In this document: piece by piece, positions 2,944 to 50,140 of the stretch | Numbering within the stretch: position 1 is the first letter of the stretch | Layout: every line of letters begins with the position of its first letter | NCBI RefSeq assembly: GCF_036365525.1 | Contig: NC_090371.1 | Coordinates: 255,810,434 to 255,874,433 of the forward strand | Reading direction: 5' to 3' | DNA: 64,000 nt | Source of the DNA: Heterodontus francisci | Lineage: Eukaryota | The notes under the pieces: model-generated | Told to the model about the DNA's origin: nothing | What the model saw: only the letters and a program-made list of their open reading frames with translations | The model's database searches: none | Translations under genes and position numbers: made by a program

Positions 2944-3282
2944 TGGCCTGTGGGGTGGTTGCCCTGGTTGGTCTTGTCCACAGCCTGTGCGGTGGTTGCC
3001 CTGGCTGGTCTTGTCCACAGCCTGTGGGGGGGTTGCCCTGGCTGGTCTTGTCCACAGCCTGTGGGGGGGTTGCCCTGGCTGGTCTTGTCCACGGCCTGTG
3101 GGGTGGTTGCCCTGGTTGGTCTTGTCCACAGCCTGTGGGGTGGTTGCCCTGGCTGGTCTTGTCCACAGCCTGTGGGGTGGTTGCCCTGGTTGGTCTTGTC
3201 CACAGCCTGTGGGGGGGTTGCCCTGGCTGGTCTTGCCCACAGCCTGTGGGGTGGTTGACCTGGCTGGTCTTGTTCACAGCCA
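2944..3282. repeat. 37-bp GC-rich minisatellite, ~9 copies
   Basis: Unit CACAGCCTGTGGGGTGGTTGCCCTGGCTGGTCTTGTC; explains the 37-aa periodic ORFs in all six frames. Confidence 0.96.
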
Positions 3283-3502
3283 TGGCCCTGAATAAGGAGC
3301 ACACGGTGCCCGCTAGTACGCTTGGCGCATTCCGTGACCAGTGGGTGACTGGAGTGCGGAGCGGATAGTAGTGATGGCATTATTTTTTAAGTTCATAAGT
3401 TTCCTTTGGTTTTGTGGTTAAATTCTTCATTCATTCAAAAGTGGTGAGGATGGCTAGACAGTTGTGTTTGGTTTTTGGTTGCTGACACCAGGGAACCCCA
3501 GT

Positions 3503-7300
<3,798 letters not shown>

Positions 7301-7457: not shown

Positions 7458-9770
7458 GAGCAAAATCCTGTGACTGCTGGAAATCTGAAAAAAAAAACAC
7501 TGCAGGAAATACTCAATAGTTCTGGCAGCAGCTGTGGAGAGAGAAACATTGCCTCTGATCTTTCATCAGGACTGGCAAAGGTTAGAAATGTAATAGGCTT
7601 TGAGCAAGTGAAAGCTGGGAAAGGGAAAGAAGAACAAAATGACAAATATGTCAAGGAATACTAATAGTTGTCGGAAAAGACGAAGCATTTGTCCAGAGAG
7701 AGCATTAATATAATAATGGACAGCTTTGTCTGAAAGCAAAAACATGAAAAACAAATTTAAGACCAGAACATGGTTTTAAAAAAAATCAAAATCAAAATGG
7801 TGATCATGGTCTGAAATTGTTGAACTGAACGTTGAGTCCAGAAGACTATAAAGTGCCCAATTGGAAGATGAGATGCTGTTCCTCGAGCTTGAGTTGAGTT
7901 TCACTGGAAAACTGCAGCAGGCCAAGGATAGAAATGTTGGTGTGAGAGTAAGGTGAACTTATTTCTTCCTATCTTGACTCTACTTTTCTCCCTTGGTCCA
8001 GTCTCTTCCACCTACATCCGTGACTCTTCTTATGCCCTATGCTATTTCAACAATTTCCAGTTTCCTGGCCCTAACCACCGTGTCTTCACTATGGACGTCC
8101 AATCTCTCGACACTTCCATAGCCCACCAGGATGGTCTGAGAGCTCTCCATTTCTTACTTGAAAGGAGGCCCATCCAGTCCCCATCCACCACCACCCTCCT
8201 TCGCTTGCTGAAATTGTTCTCACATTGAACAACATCTCCTTCAACTCCACTCACTTCCTCCAAATAAAAGGTGTTTCTATGGGCACCGTCCATATATCCT
8301 AGTTATTCCTTTCTTTTTGTGGCATATGTTGAACATTTCTTGTTCTAGTCCTACTCAGGCCCCCTTCCCCCATCTCTTTTTCTGGTACATTGATGACTAT
8401 ATTGCTGCCGTTTCCTACTCTCACCCGGAACTGGAAATTTCATCAACTTTGCTTCCAATTTCCACCCTTTTCTTACACTTCCCTTCCCTTCCTCGTCTTC
8501 TCTGTCTCCATTTCTGGGGAATGGCTGTCTGCTAATATTCATTATAAGCGCACCGACTCCCACGGCTACCTCAACTACACTTCCTCCCAACCTGCCTCCT
8601 GTAAGGACTCCATTCCATTCTCCAGTCTTGCCGTCTTCATCGCATCTGTTCTGATGATACAACCTTCACAACAGTGCTTCTGATATGTTTTCCTTTTCCT
8701 TCAACTGAGGGTCTCTTTTTTCCCCCCCCACCGTGGCTGACAGGGCCCTCGACTGTGTCCGACCCATTTTCCGCACTTCTGGTCTCACCTTTTCCCCTCC
8801 CTCCCAGAACAGTGATGGGGTTCCCCTTGTCCTCGCTTTCCACCCCACTAGACTCCACATCCAAAGGATCATCCTCCGCCATTTCCGCCACCTCCAGCGT
8901 GATGCCACCACCAAATGCATTTTCCCCTCCCCTGTCAGCATTCCCAAGGGACCATTCCCACAGCGACATCTTGGTCCACTCCTCCATCACCCCTGACACC
9001 TTGTCCTCTTCCCATGCAATTGCAGGTAGTGTAACACCTGCCCTTACCTCCTCTCTCCTCACCATCCAAGACCCCAAGCACTCCTTCCAGGTGAAGCAAC
9101 AATTTACTTGTACTTCTTTCAATTTAGTATACCGTATTCGCTGCTCACAATGTGGTCGCCTCTACGTTGGGGAGACCAAATGTAGATTAGGTGACCACTT
9201 TGCAGAACACATCTGCTCACTCCGCAAGCATGCTCCCAAGATTCCGGCTGCTTGCCATTTTAATTCATCACTCTTCTCTCACACCCACATTTCTGTCCTT
9301 GGCCTGCTGCAGTGTTCCAGTGAAGCTCAATGCATGCTCGAGGAACAGCACCTCATCTTCCGATTATGCGCTTTACAGCCCTCTGGACTCAATATTGAGT
9401 TAACAATTTCAGACCATGACCGCCATTTTGCTTTTGATTTAATTTTTTTATAACGTGCCATTCTTAAACTTGATTTTCATGTTTTTGCTTTCGGACGGAG
9501 CTGTTCATTATCCTGCCATTAATGCTCTCTCTGGACAAATGCTTTGTCTTTTACTACAACTATTACTATTGTTCCCTTTGACTTTTGTTCTATGACGTCT
9601 TTGTCATTTAATCTCTCCCACCCTCCGCCCTATTGAAGATCTTCCCTTTTGTTCTTCACCCCCTCCACTTTTCACTTGCTCAAAACCTATTTCATCAGAG
9701 CTGGCAAAGGTTAGAAATGTAAACTCTCAGACCTGAAACTCAGCATCCACTGAGCACTTTGTTTTTATTA
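7458..9770 (+). mobile_element. Degenerate Penelope-like element (RT + GIY-YIG) with an inverted copy of its 3' end, in ZNF330 intron 1
   Basis: RT motifs FTMDVQSL...IAHQDGLRAL and FFWYIDD; GIY-YIG FTCTSFNLVYRIRCSQCGRLYVGETKCRLGDHFAEH; ~7590-7955 is the reverse complement of ~9265-9690. Confidence 0.9.
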
Positions 9771-35299: not shown

Positions 35300-37400
35300 A
35301 CATAATATGAATGAATAACCAAACATGGCATTAAGGCATCTTTTCCTGTAACTCCATAAATAGCTCAGTATAAAATAAGTGTGCATTCTTCTTTATTACA
35401 AGCAACCCTAAACATACCATCTTTCTCCTTTTCTACTGATTTCCTTAGGTGATAACCTGTATCAGGAGATATGATTGGTTGCTCCTGTGGTACAAAAGGT
35501 TCATGGGATTTATGTGGCCCTCCTCTTACACTAGCTTCATCCTGGGATGGATCCACTGCTGGCTGCATCTCTCCAGCTTGTGCCTGGCAGCATGGTGTCA
35601 CCTCCTACTTGCCAATTGCATGGTGTTCTGAGGCAGCTCGCCAGATGCCTAGCACATGCCATTGAGCTGAGAAATGGCAGCCTCATGCATGCTGCCTCCT
35701 GCTGTCACCATTGCACTGAACTCTGGATCTGTGTCCGCAGAGAACAGCGGGTTGGCTGATTTAATGATAGCTATCTGACCCTCAAAGCCCTGACAAGCAA
35801 CTGCCTGCATCCTGGCCTTCAATGTCTGAAAGCTGGTGTGAAGGGTGTCATCTAATCTGTCCCCAACTGCCACCCAGGACAGCAGTCTGTGCTTTCACAG
35901 AGGCTACTGAGGTGGGATGTGGGAAATTGCTGCTGATTGCAATGAATAATGAATAAATCAATAATTCTTGCAACATAAATGAAACGTTCCTGATGTTGCT
36001 GCAAATAAAGGTTATAGAATCTAGAATCACAGCTGTCTGTGGCTACATGTTATCAGAGATTTCCCTCAGAACCAGTAGGTGTGATGTTATTCAAAGGTCC
36101 TCCTTTTCAGATGCACATCCATGAGTTCTGGGTACTTAACTCTGAAGCCATGGGCAGCCTTTTCCTCAGACCCCGCTAGGAAGAAGGCACATCCTCACTG
36201 TTCCCCACTGCTCTGTGAATCACCATGTTACACCCTCACAAACACTATCAAATTCCCACTGGTTGAAAGTACCTGAGCTGATATGTGGGAGGGGGAAAGC
36301 AAATGGCACAGAGGAGTAACATGAAGGGAGTGCTCCAGAGGAATATGGGATCAGATCTTTCTCTAGGGACTGCTTTGTATGTAGCGTTGTGCTTTGGGGC
36401 AAAAACCTGACCTGGGGGTTGTTTTCAGCATTATCATCCTCATCGTTATCATTATAGTTGACGAGAAAGCAATTTCTTCCCTCCTGTTCATTCTCCTCAT
36501 TGCGATCACCTTCTCCTATTGCTGAGAAGGGCCTGAATGATAAAAGGCACAAACTAACAATGGCAGAGTGTAACCCCCTTGGGCTTAAGAAGGTAGAGAT
36601 GGTTGTGAAAATTATTGGCTGTGTGATGCATCACAGGGATGCCATGGAGGTTGTCTAGTTGTGTAGCCACTGCTCTGCATTTTCCCAGCAATTCTGCTAT
36701 CTCCCATATCTAGAGCAAAGTGCTTTCCCAGTGGCTCCATGGATTTCTCCTGCAACAAAATTGAGAGAATTAGGTGAAGCATTTGAGGGCTGCCTGCAAG
36801 GTGGTGTCAAGCAGGTGATTTAAAAGCCTGCTGATATCACCGTGTTAAAATGGAGAATGGGGCTTTAAATTTTTGCAAGCAATTGATGTTAGCGGAGAAG
36901 GCAAATTGCCTGATAAGATCACAAGTTGGTGTAGTGTGATGGGTTAATTTTAGAGGGTGTGCAGTGTGTTGGTGCCCGAGGAAGGAAGAGACAATGGCTG
37001 CTGTGTTACCTTGTCTGCCCTCATCATAGAACTGTCTCCAGCAGTGGTCTGCAATTCAGGGGGATTGGAGAGGTGGCAGCCAGTCATTGCCACTTTCCTC
37101 CAAAAGCCACATGAGGCACTTTTAAGAGGCTTCGTCCCATGAGCATGCAATAATATTGGTCTCCTTTGCTGTATTTCCGCCAGAAGTGTCTAAAGTCAGT
37201 CTCATTAAAATCATGTGCTCTTCTTTCCTCCCCCTTCCAATGCCCCATTGCTGTAAAAGTGGAACAATGGCTCATATGAACCATCTATTACACTTGCCTG
37301 ATTGTAAAATGTTCATGACTTTCCTGTTGCTCCCTCGGCCCACTTCTGCAATCTTGCACCATTCTAGGCTTTTCATAGTTCTGCTACTTCTATTCACCCA
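35300..37400 (-). mobile_element. Harbinger-type Myb/SANT remnant
   Basis: Minus strand RRAHDFNETD... near 37180-37230; general resemblance to the other Harbinger remnants. Confidence 0.45.
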
Positions 37401-37407
37401 ACATGTG

Positions 37408-37655
37408 TGTCACATCTCAGGATGAAGAATCATACATGAAGTCACAGATTTAACTTTAACAAAGTTATAACAAATGTTTAATAAAGACTTCTGTAGAGTT
37501 CTTGCTTACTGCTGCTCACTGTGGCTACAGAGCCTATCTGGCCTGACAACAATCCCCAGGTCAAGTGTTTTGCCCAAAGCACAATGTTACTTCCGTTTTC
37601 CCTTCCAAGTACCATATAATCTCTAATACTCAAGCCCACAAATACAATCATGACA
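37408..37655 (-). mobile_element. 3' LTR of Gypsy element 1
   Basis: TGTCA...TGACA inverted termini; preceded on the minus strand by the polypurine tract AAAGGAGGAA (37656-37665). Confidence 0.8.
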
Positions 37656-39560
37656 TTCCTCCTTTATCAGACTAAAACATGTCCATGATTTTTGAACATA
37701 ATCACAACACATAATCTTCATATCGTTTTGGTGGTCTCCTCTCGCGCTGTGGTCTGCCTGTTGTCTCAGGAACTCTGGTCACCACATCAAGTTTAGGAAA
37801 TGTTGTTGGCCCCTTGGGAACCGATATTTCTCCCTCTGAATAGCAAGCTGTCTGCCTACCAACAGCATCACTGGCTTGGACATCTGGATTGCTGGATGTC
37901 AGCTTCGCCTCAGCTCCTACATTTGGTTTATCTGCTGTGTCTTTGTCACCATGATACTTTTTAACGCATGAAGAATTTCTGTCATACAGTACTCCTTTCG
38001 GTGACTGCACAGTCACACTGTTTCCCTTCTTGGCAAGAACAGTACAGCTTGGGATAATATGGTGTGTCCATATTACTACTCGGACTCTCCCCATGTCAGC
38101 AATACTTCAGCACCTGGCATCACATCAGACTTCTCTAGCTCTCCTTCTGTGGTCTGCATAAAACTTTACGGCACCCTTTTTCTCAGCATCATGATCTCAA
38201 ACTCCTGATCAACTCTAATGTCCATCAGTTCTGATATCTTGGTGCATATTTTGCATCCAAATAGCAACTCAGCTGGGCTCTTTCCCATCATAGTGTGTGT
38301 ATTTGCTCTATACATGGCCACATTTGACAACAACACCTCCTTCCAGTCTTTACCCGCAGCCTGAACAATTCTCATCCGTTTCTCTAAGGATTGATTTTGT
38401 CTTTCTACTTCCCCATTTGCCTGCGGCCATTTAGGTCTTACTCTGTATTGGTGAATACCGCTGATTTGCATATAATCTGCAAAGATCTGTGAAATGAATT
38501 GTGGTCCATTGTCTGAATACAAAGTGACTGGTAGACCATGCCTTGCAAATATTTCAGCCAATGCAAACACTGTTTTCTCTGCCGTTGTCGACTTCTTTAC
38601 CACATACTCATAATAATGGCTGTGATAGTTGGTCACCACCAGTATGGACTCTCCTGATAAAAATGGACCTAAGAAGTCAACTGCTACATCCTCCCATGGT
38701 CCAGCCAGTAACTGTGCACTGTGTGCTGGTTCTAGTGGATTGGGTCTACTGACAAATTGACATCCATGGTTCCACATCTTTCTCCATCTCTGGCTACCAT
38801 ACTTTGGTTCATAAGTTTTGCTTAGTACCAACTACTCCCAAGTGACCCTCATGAGCTAGCATCACTAGTCTAGGCCTAAGCTTTCCTGGCACTATAAGTC
38901 TGTTACCTCTGAGAATACACTTCCCAATTGTACACAGTTCTTCTTGTATAACAATGTATGCCTTGAATGGGCAATTCTCCCAATTTCCAGTTTGGATTCT
39001 CTATCTGATGTCATTCAATTCTGAATCATTGTCTGACTCTCCTTCAATCTCTCTAGTTGTGATTGCTTTTGGTGTAGCACGAACTGCCACAAATCGCACA
39101 AATGATTCAGCTTCCTTCTCTAGTGAAGATCTGTGTGTTTGTCCTTCAACTGACTCTATGATGTCTCGGTCAACAAGTTCCTTGATTTTAGCCTCAACTT
39201 TCCCTCTTAGACCAAAAGGTGTTCTGCGTACAGGCTGAGCTAGAGGCTTCAGGTTCTCGCCAATGGTTAATATGACTTGGCGGATGTGCAACTTCCCAAT
39301 TCCTTGAAACACTGGTCCAAACTCCTCTTGAAGCTCCGCACAGGATTTCACAGAATTCAATTCACTGTGTAGCACCCCCAAGGCTTGGCCAGTTTCTCTA
39401 CTCAGGAGAGGCTCATCATCCTCCTCAATCACTACGAATTCTGCCTCCACAATCTGATCCCCAGTTCTTACACTTGCACTGAAACATCCAACAGTTTGAA
39501 GTGGGGTTTTAGACGTGCAAGGATAAAGCTTTTTGACACATTTTCAAGATGTGCACTTGA
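37656..39560 (-). mobile_element. Gypsy (Ty3) element 1 pol remnant; RT/RNaseH largely deleted
   Basis: Integrase motifs GPWEDVAVDFLGP, YSDNGPQF and PQANGEVERQN; C-terminal RPQRERRPPKRYEDYV; protease end EPLLSRETGQALG and RT start PVRRTPFGLRGKVEAKI. Confidence 0.9.
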
Positions 39561-40540: not shown

Positions 40541-41189
40541 GGACTAAAATGCTTTATTTTGTGTCACAAGAAGTTCCACAGTTTTGAGGTGCTGGGAAAG
40601 AATGAGTCAAATTAACAGACTGTGATGTCAAAACAGTAGAGATGTAGGAAGGAGGAAAAGCATGTTGAATAGCATATGGGTAGTTTAGAAGCGAAAAAAG
40701 AGGAAAGTTCAGTGAGGTACTGGTCATACAAACAGAGAAAGACAACAAAGGTGAAGAAAAAATGGTTGGAGGCTAGAGGTGAGAGAGGGAGCACTTACCA
40801 AGTGATAAATATGTTCTTTTCTTTTGTTTAGCAACAGAAAAGAGATGCTAGTTTAGGATGGACTTGCCATTTTCGAGTTCAATCAAATTTCTAGGCCATA
40901 ATATTTAGAATACATTGCCTCATCAATCCTTATTGCAGCTGCAGAGAAAGAACATGTTGTTTCTTGTGGTATTGCTCTATTACTATATGTTCCCTGGTTA
41001 ATGTCCCATTTATTGGCAATGTTGCACAAATTGAACAATATAGTGCAAGGTTTGATCCAGTACACTTCTTGTTACTTTGCTGCTCCCATGTCTTCCAGAG
41101 TCTCTTGGTTATGTTGTCCACGATCTAGTCTGGCCCTTCCTGTTGTGCATTTACTTGTGCTCTTGGCAATTAAATACCACCTTTGCTTG

Positions 41190-41400
41190 GTGTCCTAGCC
41201 AATATTTATCCCTCAACTAACATCACTAAAACAGATTATATGGTCACTATCTCATAGCTGTTCTTGGGAGCAAATTGGCTGCCACGTTTCCTACATTACA
41301 ACAGTGGCTGCATTTCAAAAGTACTTCATTGACTGAAGCATTTTGGGCACGCTGAGGATGTGAAAGGTGTTATATAAATTCAAGTTTATTCTTTCTTTGA
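41190..41400 (+). mobile_element. Deu-SINE 3' fragment
   Basis: TGTCCTAGCCAATATTTATCCCTCAAC...CAAATTGGCTGCC...TTCAAAAGTAC resembles 20240-20370. Confidence 0.75.
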
Positions 41401-42164
41401 AGGAAGAATAACGTGCATGGTTTAATCAAGCATATTCCACTGACAATATACATTTGCTTCTTCCGACACCATGCACAGTGATGGTAAAATTTCATTCTGC
41501 TGCTAACTGTTTGCTTTTGCTTTGCATCCACATTTCATAATGATATGCTTTTGTGTTTCTGAGCATTTCTTATAAATGATGCAGGTCTCCATTCAGCTTA
41601 TTCAGCATTACTACATTTCTTTGTGGAGCATATGACTTATTCTTTTGTGTATAAGGGCTATAATTAGAAGCTAAAAAGGCAAATCTCTTGCTCACTTGCT
41701 AGATTGTCCTAGCTCATAACATGGCATTGTATATATCAATCACATTAATTTTTGGCACTTTGTGGTTTTCCCTGGTATTAATATTTTTGTAATTTCCTCC
41801 CATGTCTGTTGGGTACATGATCTCCACTCAGTGATATATCCCACATTTGCCTAACTTGCTCATCAGTGGGAAAGGAGGCAGATTTCTTTCCATCTCTCCC
41901 AATGGTGACTCTGTATCACAAGTTAGTCAAGAGCTTTGATGGTGTCATTACAAGCTTTCTGCCACCTCCTTTGATCCACTCACCCTCAAATTTCTCTAGG
42001 ATTAATTATATTTTATGATTCTGCATTAAATATAGGATTAAATGACTACTTATCTTATTAAAGAGTGCCTGTGAGCATCATTGCAGGCATGATTTGATTG
42101 ACAACCAGTTAAAAAGAATTCTATTACATCATTTCAAACTTATTCCATGTGGTGCATAAAATGA

Positions 42165-43912
42165 CTTCAGCCAAAAGCCTTTATTTACATATCATGACTT
42201 CAGAGGTCACATGAGGACGGCAAGACAAACTGTACAAAGGTATTTGTCCAAACATCGCTCCTGTGCATAAAAGAAAAATTTGCATTTACATTGCAACTAA
42301 ATAAAAATCATAAAGGCCTGCACATTTACACATTGATAAAGCAGAAAACTTAATAAATTTGACAAAACTCACAAAGATGTACCAACAATTTCTGTCTTTA
42401 CTTAATTGTAAGTCTGTTCAGAACCTTAGGGAGCTCCCAACACACTCCAAAATGCATAGCCATCCAGTTAATACAGAACTCTAGAATATCCAACTCTGAG
42501 GCAAATCAACAGAGGCTCTGTCTGAAAACAAAGAGGTAAGGCAGTCTTATTAGCCTTTTAAATCAAATTCGATTTTCTTTCCTTGAGGAGTTGTTTTACA
42601 ATTCTAGCACTCAGCTCCTTCAAAGGCTTCTTTTAAAGCTTCTTCAGTTGTGTCAATAGAAAGGCCACAAACAAATAATATCTTTCTGGGACTATCACCA
42701 CTTCTGTGACCTTGATTGCTGAAATTCAACCTCACAGTTCTCCCATCGATTTCTGTATTGCGGTGATTCTCAAGAGCTTCTTTAGCATCTTCAATAGATT
42801 CAAATTTAACAAATGTAAATCCTTTTGGTCAGCCATTCCTTTCTGGTGTTTTGATCAATGATGCTTTTTCAAAAATACTCTGAAGGGTTTCTTCTGTGCA
42901 GAATATGCTGAGTTATTTACAATGAGTGTATCAGAATCCGGTTGTGCTTGTCTACCCTTTACATTTAACACACTCTTATCGCCAGTGAAATCAGTAATGA
43001 TGGCCTTGCCCTCAACGTCAGGGTTTTGTTTCTTTTCCAATGCAATATCTGCAGTTGCTTCATTTTCAAATTCAAGATGCACAATGCCCCGAGTCCCTGA
43101 ACCATCATGAGCAGCAGCAATTCTAAAATCAATAGCATCCTCAAAAATCTCTTTGAGGCCATCCTGAGTTATCTTGAAGATTTTTGGGAGATTTTTGACA
43201 AACAGTGTCCTGCAGTCCCTTTCTTTTTCACTGTCTTCATTGCTTTTCTTGCTGCGTGCATTGTCAAGTTTGACTGTTTTTTTTTCAGGTTTGCACTTGC
43301 TGCTGTTCAATATTCAGTGTATTTACACCTAATCTGTATTAATGCTTTGTCTTTCAACACACCATTAACATATTGTTTGCCTTTGCTCCGTGACCTTTTG
43401 GTCAGCTATGTGGCCTGGTCCAATCTAGACGTCCTTTGTTATCTCTTGCCCCACCCCCACCTCACTTGCTTACAACCTGTGACTTTTTAAATATTTGTCA
43501 GTTCCGATGAAGGGTCACGGACCCAAAACGTTAACTCTGCTTCTCTTTCCACAGATGCTGCCAGACCTGCTGAGTGGTTCCAGCATTTCTTGTTTTTATG
43601 TCAAGTTTGACTGGTTTGTTTCCATTGAATTCCAATGCCTTTTCCAGTTGTTCTTTGGTTTCATAGTCTATGTAATCGAATGTCCTCCTAGATCCAATAC
43701 AGACATCTGTGACTGAAAATTTCTTTTTGGTGAGGAAGCCATTCACGACTTTCTTTAGTTCTTCAAAAAGCTTTTCAGAGTTCAAATTTCCAACAAATAG
43801 CGAAAAGGATGCATGATTTTCATTCTTTCGCTTTCCAGCTTTCTTTAGCACAACTATCTCTTCTTCATCCTTTGCCTTTTTAGTCACAGTAGCTGCACGC
43901 TTGGGAATAGAT
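42165..43912 (-). pseudogene. NCL: Processed nucleolin pseudogene (RRM1-RRM3, partial RRM4, C-terminus, 3' UTR)
   Basis: FSLFVGNLNSEK; ERDCRTLFVKNLP...VHLEFENEATA; SDTLIVNNSAYSA; LFVCGLSIDTTEEALKEAF; C-terminal TPQGKKIEFD. No introns between RRMs; frameshifts present; minus-strand AATAAA at 42180-42185. Confidence 0.9.
43277..43598 (+). mobile_element. Penelope-end insertion in the nucleolin pseudogene, 15-bp TSD
   Basis: TGTCAAGTTTGACTG at 43262-43276 and 43599-43613; PLE end GATGCTGCCAGACCTGCTGAG; decayed hammerhead motif at 43501-43535. Confidence 0.88.
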
Positions 43913-45154
43913 TTCTCTTCTGGTGTGTGGAAGGTTACTAGTCCAAGCTTTTGATTTGTTTCAGTTGAGGGGAGTTTGCTTCGTGTCCACTATCTGGAAC
44001 TCACGTTCTTTTTTCTTCCCAGTGCATTGAACTCTCAGATTACTTTGTCCTCTTGGGGTGAGCATCGTTCTATCATACAGCCTCAGCTTTACCTTCGATG
44101 GCTTCATATTTGGGTCACCATCTTGTGCAATTTCACACAAGTCTGTGAAGCTCATTATGTTGCATGTAGAGCCAGTCTCTGTTTGACATCTCACATCATC
44201 TTGATGCCCTCCTTCTGTAGTCATCATTCCAACAGTCACAAACCACTTTCTACCTCGAAAGTGGTTGGCGCTAACATGTTCTACAGTGTAAAGTGATGCA
44301 TCAGAATCATCGTCTGACATCTCTCCAGCTATCATCTTTACAGGTTTGCTTTTCCTCTTTCTAGCAAAACACTTGTGTGAAAAGTGGTTCAGCTTCTTGC
44401 AGTTAGAGAATTGCTTTCTCCACATGCTTCCTCTTCTTTCTTGTAGTGTCCTCCACAGTATTTACATCCCATACTCTGGCCTTGACCTTTCTTCTGGCCC
44501 TTCAGAAAGTTGTCCTTCCTTTTCATCATTTACTTGGGTTTGGAAGAATTAGACTGTCTCTTAGCGTAGTACACAGCCTCATTGGTTCTCCCATCAATAC
44601 TCCTTCAGTTGCCCAAGCTCACAAGACTGAGCCAGATGTCTCAGTACAGTCACATACTGATCAATATTCTCCCTCTCTTCCTGAACTCTAGTGTTAAACA
44701 CATAGCATTCACAAATGACATTGGGACTTGAAGGCCTCCAAAATCTCTGAAGTCTTGCTTTGGTTTCTCCTCAGTGACATCTAGGGTGCAATACAGCTTG
44801 TAACACTCCTTCCCCATCAATGATAACAGAGTTGCTATTCTTATCTATTCAGGTTTCTTGTCCAACTCTTGTGGCAATCTCATCATTCTGCCACTGAGAC
44901 TGGAAGAATTGCCAATTCCCTCTCAAATCTCCCTCCATGTCCACAGGAACAGGCACTGGAAAATTCGAAGCCATAATGATTAACGCAGCTGCCGATGTCT
45001 TCTGCAAAGCTGCAGACAGGAGTTTTCATTAAAACCAAAACTTCCCTGCCGGAACTCCACGGGGCCTAATTGTTCTTTGATGTTTTGCACTTCTGCTGTC
45101 TGCCTTACAGCTATCAAAATCCTCTCAAATCCTGGCTACTCACTTCTGACACCA
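43913..45154 (-). mobile_element. Gypsy element 2: PBS, gag and protease
   Basis: PBS TGGTGTCAGAAGTG at 45141-45154; gag MASNFPVPVPVDMEGDLRGNWQFF from 44974; zinc-knuckle remnant SNCKKLNHFSHKC; protease CQTETGSTCNIMS...KLRLYDRT. Confidence 0.88.
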
Positions 45155-45156
45155 TG

Positions 45157-48101
45157 AGTGGAATTTAATGAGCCCCCCCGGAGACAGGCTAGGATGTGGG
45201 AGCCCATAGAATTGCGATGGAAGGCGGGGGTGGAAGGCCCATCATCTTCCCGTTGCACTGTGATTAATTGTGGGTGGGAAAGGCCGAAGATGGCCTTCCC
45301 ACACGGAAGCCAACCGATGCCCTTAAGTGGCTAAATCAGTAGCCACTTAAGGGTTTCTTCCCACCACCGCTGAAATTAAACCAGCAGCAGGGGTGGGGCC
45401 TCCGCCACGCGGGTAAGTCGCTCAGTGAAACAAGGCAGCCTCCCTGTGGGCTTTGGTGGGGGGGGCTTCCTCTGTAGGCAATCCATGGCAAAATAACACC
45501 CCCCTGCCCTCATCGCCCACCTTCCCTCCTCCCCAATTGCCGTGGCCTGCTGGACGGCCCCAAAGACTTTGCCTCACTTAACTCTGGGTCCGGACTCCTG
45601 TGCTAGGCCTGGTCTCAAGACTCCTGTAATACCAGCAGTGGCCACTACTCCCAGTGGAGATGCCGATACTACTGAGGGGATCCCCTGGACTTTAATAAAT
45701 TGGTTGTATCCCTATGGCAAGAGTGTATCCCGAACATCAGCAAAACAGAATTTCTGCATGTAGATTTCTCAGTCATTTGGAACAGAGACTCTTAAACATA
45801 GTTTCTGCATGTGTTGGGTACTCAGCTGACCAAACAAAATCTAGACAGCACCATTCTTTGGATACATTACAATGACCTAGCACTTTATAAGGGGAAATGG
45901 TCATGAGAGCACTCACTTCAGGGTAATCCAGCAGCCAAACAGCAGCTTGCCACTGTGGGAAGACACTGAGCTGATCTTGGCTGTTTGGGCTCCATAGCAT
46001 CGCTGGTGTCAGTGTTATGGAAGCCCGGAACTGCAAAAATGTCAGCCAGGCCATTTCTGGTGCAGCCTGCATGGTGTGCTATGGTTTTAAGGGCGTTAGT
46101 GCAGGAGTGCTGTGCGTATGCAGAGGCATACAGAGTGGGCAGATTGTGATATCAAACATCACCCATCGATGATTTGGCACATGAACTGCTATTTTGGACC
46201 TCGCAGGTCCAATTAAGTCTCTCTTTTAATCACTCACAACTGAACAAGCATTCAACTGCATGAGGACACCCGCCTCCTCCCCCCCCCCCCCACAACTAGC
46301 GCTATTTAAAGGGATCACCACAGGGCTTATAGTTGAGGTGCTTTTGACTTCCTTTTGCTACTGCAGTGTGATTGAAGGTAATCTGTTAATGGAGGAGTTT
46401 GGAAAAGTTTTTGGATTCACAAGGGTGTGTTGATAGACTTTGACAGGGTGATCAGAGGAGTTGGAAGGCCTGTCAGGAGAAAGCCTGCTTTCAGTAATGT
46501 GGCCTATATTCGCATTCCCTCTTGGGCTACAACATTACAGGGACATGGAGCTTGGCAACAGAGAGGGAACGCTGTGTGCAGCGGGAGGAGGAGGAGGGTT
46601 CTCAACAGAAGGCCGTACCCACCAAGGGTCTTCAGAGAACACTTCTCCTACCTCCACCTCAGCTAGGAGCAATGTCTGAGGCCTTGCAAGATGTCCTCAA
46701 GCAGCTCTGGGCCTTGAGGGTTTGGCTTCAGACTGCACCATCTCTGCATGGGTGGCAGCAGTCTGGACTGGCTGGCTGAAAGGACACTGGCAAATGGCAG
46801 TGGTGAGAGCACGAATGGTGTCATCCTGAGAGAAGTCAACAGGTTTGTGCACTATAGAGCCACTGCAACTTCCCCAGGGCAGTGCCCAGCAATCCTAGTA
46901 ATCTGTTGGAGCACAGATTGCTGGACTTCTGTGACAGCCTGCACGCCCCTTTGAGCATTGAGATCCGCAGCCATGATGGTAGCAGTCTGAGCCTGCATGA
47001 CACCAAGCTGGAATTGCTTGGCAACAAGCATGGATCTCATGACCTCAGTCTGAACTTCCAATACAGCACTGAGATATTGGGTGGCTTCTGCCTGTGCTGC
47101 AATGAAAACTGAGACATCAGCTGCAACACGCTGGGTCCACGAGTGCTGTCATGGAGTTCGCTACCACGTTCGCACTGGAAAGGAGAGGCTCCAAGGCCTG
47201 TGTGAAGCCCTGTGTGAAGTTGGAACCAGACAGCTCCATGCTCCTTGAAAGTGACAACAGGCTCTGTGGTAGGCCTGCCAATGCATAAAGCATCTCTGTA
47301 TGCATGCCCATCAGTGTTCTCCTGTACGCTGCCCCAATGAGGTCCTCTGCAGCAGAACACATCTGCAACCTGGGCCTCTGGTGAGCTGTCACACACGCTA
47401 CCTTTTCCCCCTGCCCTGGTTGCAGCCCACTTGCAGAAGGTGGCTTACCATGCGCTGTTCCCAAGTCTGTACTACTATCTAACTATGTATAGTGTGTATT
47501 GGGACTGTGATGCATTGAGCAGTGTGCGACCGTTGGGTTGGAGATGTAATCTGAAGATGCATTCATTGAACTTTTTACAACACTGCAGCCTGATCCTCAG
47601 GGTCAGACTCTGGGAATTTACCTTCCTGGCCACCCGCATCCATTCTCTTCACAGGGCATGCCTTGAGAGCCTCCTGACCCTCTGCGGAATCATGGCCTAT
47701 CCCCTCCTTTGGACCTCCTGGACTAAAGTCTCCAGCACTGCATCTTTGGGGACTGTCTCTCTGTCCTGTTGCTCCATGACCAGTTTTCATCGTTCCAGCA
47801 AAGCCTTTCTGAAACTGTTCCATCAACTACTGTAGCATAAGTGAACTTTCCCTTTAAGAGGGGCTGGCTGCCTTTAAGAAGTGTAAGCTAGCTATACATT
47901 GAGCTAGCCACGCACACATCTGGGACGCCTGTTGGATGTGCAGCCAGTCAGCAGAGAGTTTCATGCTGGGCTGTATGCTGCAGTCATGTTCATGAGCACG
48001 CAGCATGAAGTTTGTGTGCTGTTTTCTTCAACTGGACCAGGCTCTGGGGAATTGTGCATCATGATGTCCGCGTCCGCCAATGGGCCTATTTAAATTTCCC
48101 C
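45157..48101. mobile_element. Internally deleted Harbinger transposon(s): transposase N-terminus (+) and Myb/SANT gene (-)
   Basis: Plus strand RRRRVLNRRPYPPRVFREHFSYLHLS (46585-46670); minus strand DAVLETLVQEVQRR...EWMRVARKVNSQS...QCCKKFNE (47560-47750); TIR-like ends GTGGAATTTA / TAAATTTCCCCC. Confidence 0.75.
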
Positions 48102-48990
48102 CCTTATTTCTTGCAGCATGTGTTACATCTTTCAGTTTTCCTTAATGTGAGCCATCTATCTGATTACTTTTGCTGTGTCGATCTTTGTCCTCAGTCTAAA
48201 AGAAATGTGTGTGTGTGTTTGTCTTAGTAAAGTTCATGCCCAGGGCTACTTTTACGTGTGATACAATTAGCTCTTTTTTTATGTGAATATACAGATATGA
48301 AGACAGGAAAGAGTAATAAATAATATGGCAAATGGAAGGCAAGTAAATAAAAGGAAAAAAAAGGTGACGGTCTTCAGTTTTCCTTTTGTTATATTGTAGA
48401 TCAAACTATTGAGTGGACTTCTGTGGACCTATTTTGAGAATAAATGTAAACCTTCACTGTGTATTTTATAAATTTGTTTTTCTGAATACTGACAAACCCC
48501 TTTGACGAATAATATCCAGCTTTTTGCAATTTCATCAAATCATACCTTGTAACCGTACTGAATGGAACTCTTCAGTTTTTGATCCAATACGGTGATTGCA
48601 AAAAGTCAATACTTTTGTGATTGCTTTATTTCATTCTTAAGGTAACACCATTTGAAAATTGTACTTACATAAGACTAGCAATAAATAATTGAAAGGATTC
48701 ACGAAACTCAACATATTCCAGGAATGCAGGAGACTGATGAATATTTAGCTATCTTCAGATTATTTCCAATGAATCAAAATTACAAGTAATTATTTAGAAT
48801 AAACTGTCGAACAGAAGATACAATAAAAGTTTCTAATGGTTCTTTTTTATTACATAACTCCATAATAAAGAAATCATAACTACAATACCAGAGATTTGAT
48901 AGCTATTTTCTCAATCTCCTGCCTTAAGTTAAATCCCCAGAGAAATGGCATTAAAGTGCATTTTCAGCCATTTGAATTGTTTCTGTAGGC

Positions 48991-50140
48991 TGTCACAAAA
49001 GTTATCTGTGTGCCTTTAAGACTGAGAAAAAGGATTTCTCTGAGAACAGTGAATGCTGAACTGGGTGAGGCAATCAGTTTTTCCAAGCTTCTCAACAGAG
49101 CGAAGTGTCACATGATTGGCTGCTGGGGAGTTTTTAGCTTCGCTTTTGCAAGAGGAGGCCAGTTTTGGCTGGAACCTGTTTGGAGACCAGAGAAAGCAAT
49201 CTCTCTCTGAAGGAATGTAAAAGACCAGTTTGCTGTTATAAACTGGGTAAGAACACAGCCCAGAAACCTTTTCTGTTGAGGAATAATTCCTGTATTAAGT
49301 GAAATTCAAATTTCTTCATGAAGTTAAAAGAACTTTGAAAAAGTTGCAAATTTAAGGTATGGGAGCTGAAACCCTTGTTGCTGTTTATGTCTGAAGAAAG
49401 AGAAAAGACCCAGGAAGAGGAGTTGTAACACCCTGTGGAGAATCACTGTTTTGGAGAAAGGCTCCTTTGTTGATAGGAAGCCTTGCATGATTAAGGGTGG
49501 AAAGATTCCTGTTGTCTCCAGTCTCTGGAAACTCTCTGCCTCAAAAGTGAGTCTGGTTGTCTTTTTGTGTGTTTGAAAGATCCTGAAATCTCAGGAAAGT
49601 TTCTGCTGTTGGACTGCTACTTAGAAATCCAAGTAGACCTGTTGCTGCATCCTTTTGGTGTGAGATCTGTATGATGCCTACAGCAGACAAATTGCCTTGA
49701 ATGCCTACCCACCACAGATGGTTCATTGATTTCACCTGGAGACTTCAAGTGTCATCTGACTATTTGACTCTGGGACACCTCACCAGAAGTTACAACCCCG
49801 TTAGTTCCTAAGAAACCTTTGCAACTTAAACCAATATTTTAAAACCAGTTAACCATTGGGTTTTGGAATGGATGTGTGTGCATGAGGGTTAGGAAGAATA
49901 AGAAGTTATAAAAATCTATTCATACATATCGATTTATCTCGTTATCGTTTAAAATTGGTTTATTAATAAATAGTTAATTTGTTGTTTAAAGAAACTCGGT
50001 TTGGTATGCTTTATTCTGGGGAATAAATATGGTATTTAATTTGGCTAATTTCCAGTAAGTGGGAAACTTTACTAATAGGTTGTGACCTGTGGAGTAGTGG
50101 AACTGAATTAACAGTGCATTACCCGACCTTGGTTGTAACA
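48991..50140 (+). mobile_element. Probable solo LTR (~1.15 kb)
   Basis: TGTCAC...GTAACA termini; internal AATAAA; no coding content; TSD imperfect. Confidence 0.55.

Follow-up and report, generated by a model that had tools for sequence, protein, structure and literature searches.

A decayed Ty3/Gypsy copy carrying host nucleolin in place of its polymerase core in Heterodontus francisci, probably formed by template switching

Organization of the locus

The window analysed here is a 64,000-nucleotide stretch of Heterodontus francisci DNA (NCBI RefSeq assembly GCF_036365525.1, contig NC_090371.1, positions 255,810,434 to 255,874,433 of the forward strand). On its minus strand lies a chimeric Gypsy-nucleolin copy, in which a primer-binding site (from 45,154) is followed by Ty3/Gypsy gag-protease (44,974-43,914), intron-free nucleolin (43,921-42,322) and a Gypsy 3' end. 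The chimeric copy is real, and it is dead, bearing stops, frameshifts, deletions and a 322-nt insert and differing by about 12% from the parent mRNA; it is predicted to yield no protein today. The parts of the chimera and two neighbouring elements, in positions of the window, are as follows.

45,155-45,156, minus strand: last two bases matching the end of the family LTR; family contigs match to 45,156 and continue into LTR sequence
45,142-45,154, minus strand: primer-binding site, beginning TGG; read from the sequence and found directly after the LTR end in other copies
43,914-44,974, minus strand: remains of Ty3/Gypsy gag and protease, decayed and reaching the beginning of the linker between protease and reverse transcriptase (RT); from relatives, tblastn and DNA contig depth (665-2,506)
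43,914-43,921, minus strand: 5' junction, at most 8 nt common to the Gypsy family and nucleolin mRNA; from contig ends
42,322-43,921, minus strand: intron-free nucleolin retrocopy; from tblastn, Pfam RRM_1 and RNA-like contigs
43,277-43,598, no strand assigned: later insert of a 322-nt high-copy repeat; 15-nt target duplication, DNA depth above 400,000
42,255-42,321, minus strand: likely Gypsy internal 3' non-coding stretch; not reached by the mRNA-like nucleolin contigs, with a required depth (about 650-750) close to that of the Gypsy interior
42,141-42,254, minus strand: 3' LTR of the same Gypsy family; end fixed by contig joints (bin depth 1,382), start putative
45,157-48,103, no strand assigned: neighbouring decayed DNA transposon, tentatively PIF/Harbinger-like; from inverted ends, a weak Myb match and repeat depth
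37,400-39,543, minus strand: neighbouring separate Gypsy element, far end approximate; own protease end, integrase, purine tract and LTR from 37,655

The primer-binding site is one that we take to be of the tRNA-Leu type, and the two bases beside it are the sole remnant at the place where a 5' LTR is expected.

Evidence on other copies was drawn from public contigs aligned to 40,900-49,100 at 80% likeness, in one DNA run and three RNA-like runs that all stem from a single sample, probably the source of the assembly. The contig figures rest on the 12 of 143 joint rows, 24 of 4,919 loose ends and 32 of 115,847 pieces that were listed; contig depth is no copy number, and the RNA-like runs consist of contigs and are silent on transcription of the chimera locus itself. 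Gypsy pol was sought by tblastn of 155 queries on the window, which gave 238 alignments, and Rfam gave 0 matches across 40-50 kb. Elsewhere in the window, tandem arrays occupy 2,946-3,281 (a 37-nt unit repeated 9 times) and 3,498-6,983 (a 61-63-nt unit repeated about 56 times).

Gypsy gag-protease and the 5' junction

A first-pass annotation of this DNA had read gag and protease as running on the minus strand directly into nucleolin cDNA, and tblastn of relatives bears this out, placing them from 44,974 to about 43,914. The start codon at 44,974 opens a gag-protease broken by several stops and frameshifts, within which a 166-codon frame (44,461-43,964) has 277 relatives at E<=0.001. Likeness to relatives is 25-51% identity; two of the five pol-bearing relatives, when looked up, proved to be named K02A2.6-like. 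Among the eight relatives scanned with Pfam, five, the long ones, show the Ty3/Gypsy order of RT, RNase H and integrase, an order tested in relatives only, the chimeric copy itself being without the pol core. Pfam assigned no family to the gag or protease frames themselves. Word-based protein searches, which do not in themselves show absence, found the gag-protease frame in 0 of 122 candidates among longer proteins and the junction frame in 0 of 69 candidates of like length.

The frameshift that had been noticed just upstream of the junction was sited at about 43,966 by tblastn. Alignments of most relatives end at this frameshift, at 43,967, and one relative, P0102, carries on in the next frame through PEE to 43,915, a position that corresponds in relatives to the linker towards RT, roughly ten residues beyond the end of protease. 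Past the junction no Gypsy pol resumes, as had been stated: between 39,600 and 43,900 tblastn gave no match to RT, RNase H or integrase, and all 7 matches within that interval stem from the single nucleolin among the 155 queries.

Pol sequence does occur at 39.5-37.4 kb, where it had been assigned to a separate element. That assignment is upheld, and a continuation of the chimera is ruled out, by a protease end and a purine tract (37,665-37,656) of the element's own. The element (39,543-37,400, minus strand) has RT and RNase H deleted and integrase kept, and its LTR, which starts at 37,655, fails to align with the 3' LTR of the chimera. The deletion inside the element is clean and lies near 39,135. 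A LINE-like repeat cuts the element on its 5' side, from about 39,570, and a 48-nt inverted pair (36,381-36,428 and 37,543-37,590, 83%) has one arm inside the element's LTR.

The junction of protease and nucleolin reads, as first described, in one stop-to-stop frame (43,989-43,531), which comprises 152 codons and no methionine. At the protein level, P0102 aligns through PEE to 43,915 and shark nucleolin aligns from EE at 43,920, Glu-Glu sitting at the overlap in both parents. At the nucleotide level, RNA-like nucleolin contigs follow the window as far as 43,921 before diverging (a loose end, two contigs), and from the Gypsy side two contigs agree with it down to 43,914 before parting from it, one of them with 374 other letters. 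The overlap amounts to 5-8 nt: contig ends give up to 8 nt (two plus two contigs, at 80% likeness), and a calculation from depth in the three RNA-like runs yields 4.8-5.1 nt if every nucleolin contig reaches into the bin. An overlap of at least 8 nt would arise by chance with a probability of about 1e-4 for DNA of even composition and 9e-3 if the DNA is very rich in purines, and overlaps of this kind fit template switching and DNA-level deletion alike.

The in-frame register was considered as a sign of selection or function and set aside, as it is expected by chance in 1 case in 3. Here its chance is likely higher than 1 in 3, since both parents have Glu-Glu at the overlap. The fusion in frame to the nucleolin RNA-recognition motifs (RRMs), moreover, extends to RRM1 only; beyond it the description fails, as the later insert closes the junction frame after RRM1, and the frame has no methionine with which to begin.

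The nucleolin retrocopy

The RRM2 frame has shark and ray nucleolins as its best relatives (64-73% identity), and by tblastn shark nucleolins match the window at 64-78% identity. Residues 93-113, 166-272, 269-392, 388-489 and the last few residues of the Heptranchias nucleolin (P0001) are matched. The retrocopy spans from about residue 93 into the 3' UTR, with RRM1-3 and the start of RRM4 (Pfam RRM_1). It lacks the larger part of the acidic tract, a run of 13-14 residues ahead of RRM1, and the greater part of RRM4 together with the Gly-Arg tail. In a word-based search with RRM2, 10 of 1,032 candidates matched, named nucleolin or hypothetical, and the 8 of these that were examined are without a Gag part, which again does not in itself show absence.

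The nucleolin piece follows shark nucleolin proteins colinearly and aligns with the mRNA-like contigs without gaps, and its sole long interruption is the insert that bears the 15-nt duplication. This 322-nt repeat lies after RRM1, with its target duplication at 43,613-43,599 and 43,276-43,262. Besides this insert, the first reading of the locus passed over a frameshift at 42,897, a stop at 42,831 and three deletions inside the nucleolin piece; there is also a 6-nt extra stretch at 43,179. Four mRNA-like contig pieces differ from the window, without gaps, at 27 of 190, 26 of 246, 25 of 173 and 19 of 166 letters, or about 12% (10.6-14.5%), and the nucleolin copy is old. In another part of the window (7,489-9,695), long inverted arms in several pieces, 77-92% complementary, are related to the repeat that interrupts nucleolin.

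The 3' junction and LTR

The 3' end of nucleolin was misread at first; the same Gypsy family resumes after it with a non-coding 3' end. Nucleolin had been said to end at its own AATAAA; mRNA-like contigs instead leave the window at 42,322 (one of them with 323 further letters), and the AATAAA lies in the Gypsy LTR. The bin that holds it (41,996-42,269) has depths of 4.1, 1.4 and 7.8 in the RNA-like runs, as against 3,000-72,000 over nucleolin, and a depth of 1,382 in the DNA run, as against 8-9 in the unique flank. Near-absent from mRNA-like contigs, the stretch is LTR, and the AATAAA was rejected as a signal of nucleolin's own.

The end of the LTR is given by DNA joints, among those listed, that connect 45,156 to 42,144 (1 letter between, depth 19.5) and 45,156 to 42,146 (3 letters, depth 17.6). 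These joints show that, in other copies, the primer-binding site is immediately preceded by a stretch that ends near 42,144, which identifies it as the LTR end, at 42,141 in the window; because the family joints define the LTR end there, the AATAAA at 42,185-42,180 belongs to the LTR. A TGG near 42,147, considered as a leftover of the tRNA primer, sits inside the family LTR and was discarded. The LTR start would be the TG at 42,254, which follows a tract (42,264-42,255) with 8 purines in 10 positions. With this start, the LTR would have a length of 114 nt and a depth of about 2,900, and 42,270-42,321 would then need a depth of 650-750, like the Gypsy interior.

The earlier observation that no poly(A) tail is visible holds, as there is no run of at least 5 A in 41,900-42,330. 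A duplicated flank round the nucleolin piece was not seen by eye in the junction sequence, where hallmarks can decay at 12% divergence. A short imperfect direct repeat (42,335-42,322 and 42,293-42,281, minus strand) involves the nucleolin end and the Gypsy-side stretch and may relate to the 3' switch.

The missing 5' LTR and the adjoining DNA transposon

Paired LTRs with an integrase-type target duplication are not found in the chimeric copy. A 5' LTR gave no match in a self-comparison of the window or in local alignments with shuffles; a tiled scan of both strands reached a best score of 36, against a shuffle maximum of 41, and in an end-anchored test 97 of 300 random sites were equally good. 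Only 2 matching bases precede the primer-binding site, and next to them stands the right inverted end of a 2.95-kb DNA-transposon remnant (45,157-48,103), whose inverted ends are identical at 14 of 21 positions and whose match to Myb_DNA-bind_5 (E=0.018) is below cut-off. PIF/Harbinger elements (PHIS) are marked by a DDE transposase, a Myb/SANT protein and a 3-nt target duplication (PMC4482050). Contig depth is at repeat level inside the remnant and single-copy beyond 48,300. DNA beyond the left end of the transposon fails to align with the LTR, and no matching duplication was found beside its right end. A 6-nt sequence from the left end is found again at the far LTR end, in whose last bases the window departs from other copies; such a match, spotted after the fact, arose by chance in 682 and 1,469 of 20,000 random trials (3-7%). 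Farther out, a stretch of about 1.1 kb at 48,990-50,133, with a TG start and a CA end on the minus strand and repeat depth at its edge, is possibly a solo LTR of another family.

Loss of the 5' LTR by later deletion or recombination is the ordinary reading. Its absence lowers the proof of integration and not that of the capture mechanism, because one-sided loss is reported in older copies by Tan et al. (2016; Genome Res 26:1663, PMC5131818), among whose older LTR retrocopies one flank was lost in 4 cases, in zebrafish and chicken, and disabling changes were gained in 14 of 21.

It is also conceivable, if unlikely, that a 5' LTR was never there. A half-finished reverse transcript of a nucleolin-carrying Gypsy family, reaching from the primer-binding site to the U5 end and made before second strand transfer, would have been patched into a break separating the transposon end from its target duplication, and the family's founder would have encoded an in-frame Gag-protease-nucleolin fusion. 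Half-finished retroelement cDNA naturally ends at the primer-binding site, and the clues to this reading are that the element starts 2 nt before that site, exactly at the transposon end, and that the 6-nt sequence of the transposon's left end reappears at the LTR, with the chance of 3-7% given above. If the reading were true, the founder fusion would matter, given that nucleolin binds the nucleocapsid of retroviral Gag and alters particle assembly (PMC7471995).

Sibling copies

At least two other DNA contigs (2 among the 8 listed) cross the nucleolin-to-LTR junction. One piece, at 42,183-42,510, has 54 other letters and 3 gaps (depth 4.8), and the other, at 42,184-42,526, has 45 other letters and 16 gaps (depth 5.8); the two contigs diverge by 13-16% from the window, and unrelated sequence would give about 97 mismatches in the 139 non-nucleolin bases alone. 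They are too different for alleles and too alike to be unrelated, and the nucleolin-to-LTR junction is therefore present in at least three places, the hybrid having likely spread to at least two others. Such siblings are shared for the 3' junction only, as no other-locus contig crosses the 5' junction among the pieces listed.

Nucleolin-like DNA has further copies. Another intron-free nucleolin copy is represented by a DNA piece at 42,610-43,126 with 71 other letters, and at seven listed nucleolin sites 17, 15, 12, 18, 4, 6 and 5 DNA contigs differ from the window. A contig depth of about 130-190 over nucleolin, as against about 8 in unique DNA, suggests 15-20 nucleolin-like copies, chimeric or not, with the reservation that depth is no copy number. 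In Scyliorhinus torazame, scyTo_0003024 (P0006) is a second, damaged, near full-length nucleolin prediction, possibly another retrocopy.

Origin of the chimera

The locus is interpreted, with good confidence, as a dead Ty3/Gypsy copy that contains host nucleolin in place of RT, RNase H and integrase, likely by way of two template switches. Template switching, or LTR-mediated retroposition, was already the explanation proposed in the first-pass annotation, and it remains the best reading; the case is stronger than first thought because the 3' LTR of the family follows the nucleolin piece. A nucleolin insertion flanked by a target duplication, with the same Gypsy continuing on the far side, had been named as what would speak against it. 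The same Gypsy does continue there, but discontinuously, with RT, RNase H and integrase absent and with no poly(A) or target duplication, a pattern that supports capture over insertion.

The events probably ran as follows. Nucleolin mRNA would have been packaged in a Gypsy particle, where minus-strand synthesis would have proceeded through LTR and purine tract and along some 60 nt of the element's 3' end before jumping into the nucleolin 3' UTR at about 42,322. The mRNA would then have been copied back to the acidic region, followed by a jump to the protease-RT linker at the observed overlap of at most 8 nt. The product would have kept the primer-binding site and gag-protease, both still present, along with likely the purine tract and the LTR, and was likely re-copied by helper elements as a non-autonomous element, because two other contigs carry the same 3' junction. 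The present copy has decayed, as recorded in its divergence of about 12% from the parent mRNA, its stops, frameshifts and deletions, the later insert and the missing 5' LTR.

Template switching is favoured by Gypsy sequence of the same family and orientation on either side of nucleolin, by the absence of the entire span from RT through RNase H to integrase, and by a nucleolin piece that is cut at both ends, in sense orientation, with a 5' overlap and with neither poly(A) nor duplicated flank. Against it stands the frequency of large internal deletions here (RT and RNase H in the neighbouring element, three in nucleolin), so that a DNA-level deletion would give a like picture, also at short overlaps; some small probability is thus left to a later genomic deletion that joined the two parts. 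A distinctly improbable scenario of this kind is that a LINE put a 5'-truncated nucleolin into a genomic Gypsy, that a later deletion took the nucleolin tail, the poly(A), the target duplication and pol, and that the result was then re-copied. A 5' truncation with a short overlap is usual for LINE-made retrocopies, internal deletions are frequent in the window, nucleolin-like DNA is multi-copy (12-18 contigs at four sites and 4-6 at three), and the catshark P0006 offers a second, damaged nucleolin prediction. However, two events would be needed, with the deletion halting about 60 nt short of the purine tract, and neither poly(A) nor target duplication remains, whereas a single switching event accounts for both the sense orientation and the clean replacement of pol.

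Repair at the DNA level, in which part of an existing nucleolin retrocopy would have been copied into a break in a Gypsy element via short overlaps, is very improbable. It would account for the overlap at the 5' junction, donors were available among other intron-free nucleolin copies (such as the 42,610-43,126 piece), and in mouse zygotes breaks are reported to be repaired with captured cDNA or DNA (PMC4516963); a 3-kb loss with a templated sense insert of about 1.7 kb that spared all cis signals is nevertheless less economical than template switching. Hardly credible is the proposal that the LTR formerly lay in the 3' UTR of nucleolin itself and supplied its poly(A) signal, the 3' junction then being inherited and the siblings being ordinary retrocopies. 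Both sibling contigs do end at 42,183-42,184, at the AATAAA, but these are contig ends and not loose ends; current mRNA-like contigs are without the stretch (depth 1-8), the LTR in the window carries on for 40 nt after the AATAAA, up to its exact end, and the primer-binding site and gag of the same family lie on the other side.

Relation to known systems and significance

LTR-mediated retrocopies, in which the ORFs of an LTR element are replaced by partial mRNAs, have been described in fly and mosquito, in zebrafish and chicken, and in mouse and human (Tan et al., 2016). In that study, overlaps occur at 25 of 29 junctions, with a median of 6 bp, LTR-mediated copies make up about half of the informative retrocopies in mosquito, zebrafish and chicken, and such copies were copied further as non-autonomous elements (PMC5131818). 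The chimera resembles the cases described there in that an mRNA cut at both ends takes the place of part of the internal ORFs, flanked by discontinuous stretches of a single LTR element, with a short overlap at the 5' switch, no poly(A), no LINE-type duplication and likely further copying. It differs from them in its host, a cartilaginous fish, in its nucleolin cargo and in the loss of the 5' LTR exactly at the primer-binding site, and it is much older than the fly cases, at about 12% from the parent as against less than 1% (PMC5131818).

Host mRNA inside an LTR element is likewise known from HERV-K/FAM8A1 and maize Bs1 (as cited in PMC5131818), from which the chimera is set apart as a Ty3/Gypsy element without env and, compared with the three host genes of Bs1, by carrying one. 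LINE-made processed pseudogenes are similarly intron-free and 5'-truncated, going by the hallmarks summarized in PMC5131818; unlike them, the chimera is 3'-truncated, without poly(A) or target duplication, and has LTR-element sequence on both sides. With the K02A2.6-like Ty3/Gypsy Gag-Pol elements of invertebrates and deuterostomes it shares a primer-binding site, a likely purine tract and a short LTR with AATAAA, but it is without RT, RNase H and integrase, and its gag and protease are broken. Nor is there an open fused frame with a start codon, as a functional chimeric retrogene would have, the breaks occurring throughout.

A search of the open-licence literature found, among the entries listed, neither a nucleolin-Gypsy chimera nor a shark case of LTR-mediated copying. 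As an old and still readable example, the chimera extends LTR-mediated gene copying to cartilaginous fishes, and it suggests that in vertebrates non-autonomous Gypsy families can serve as vehicles for captured host mRNAs.
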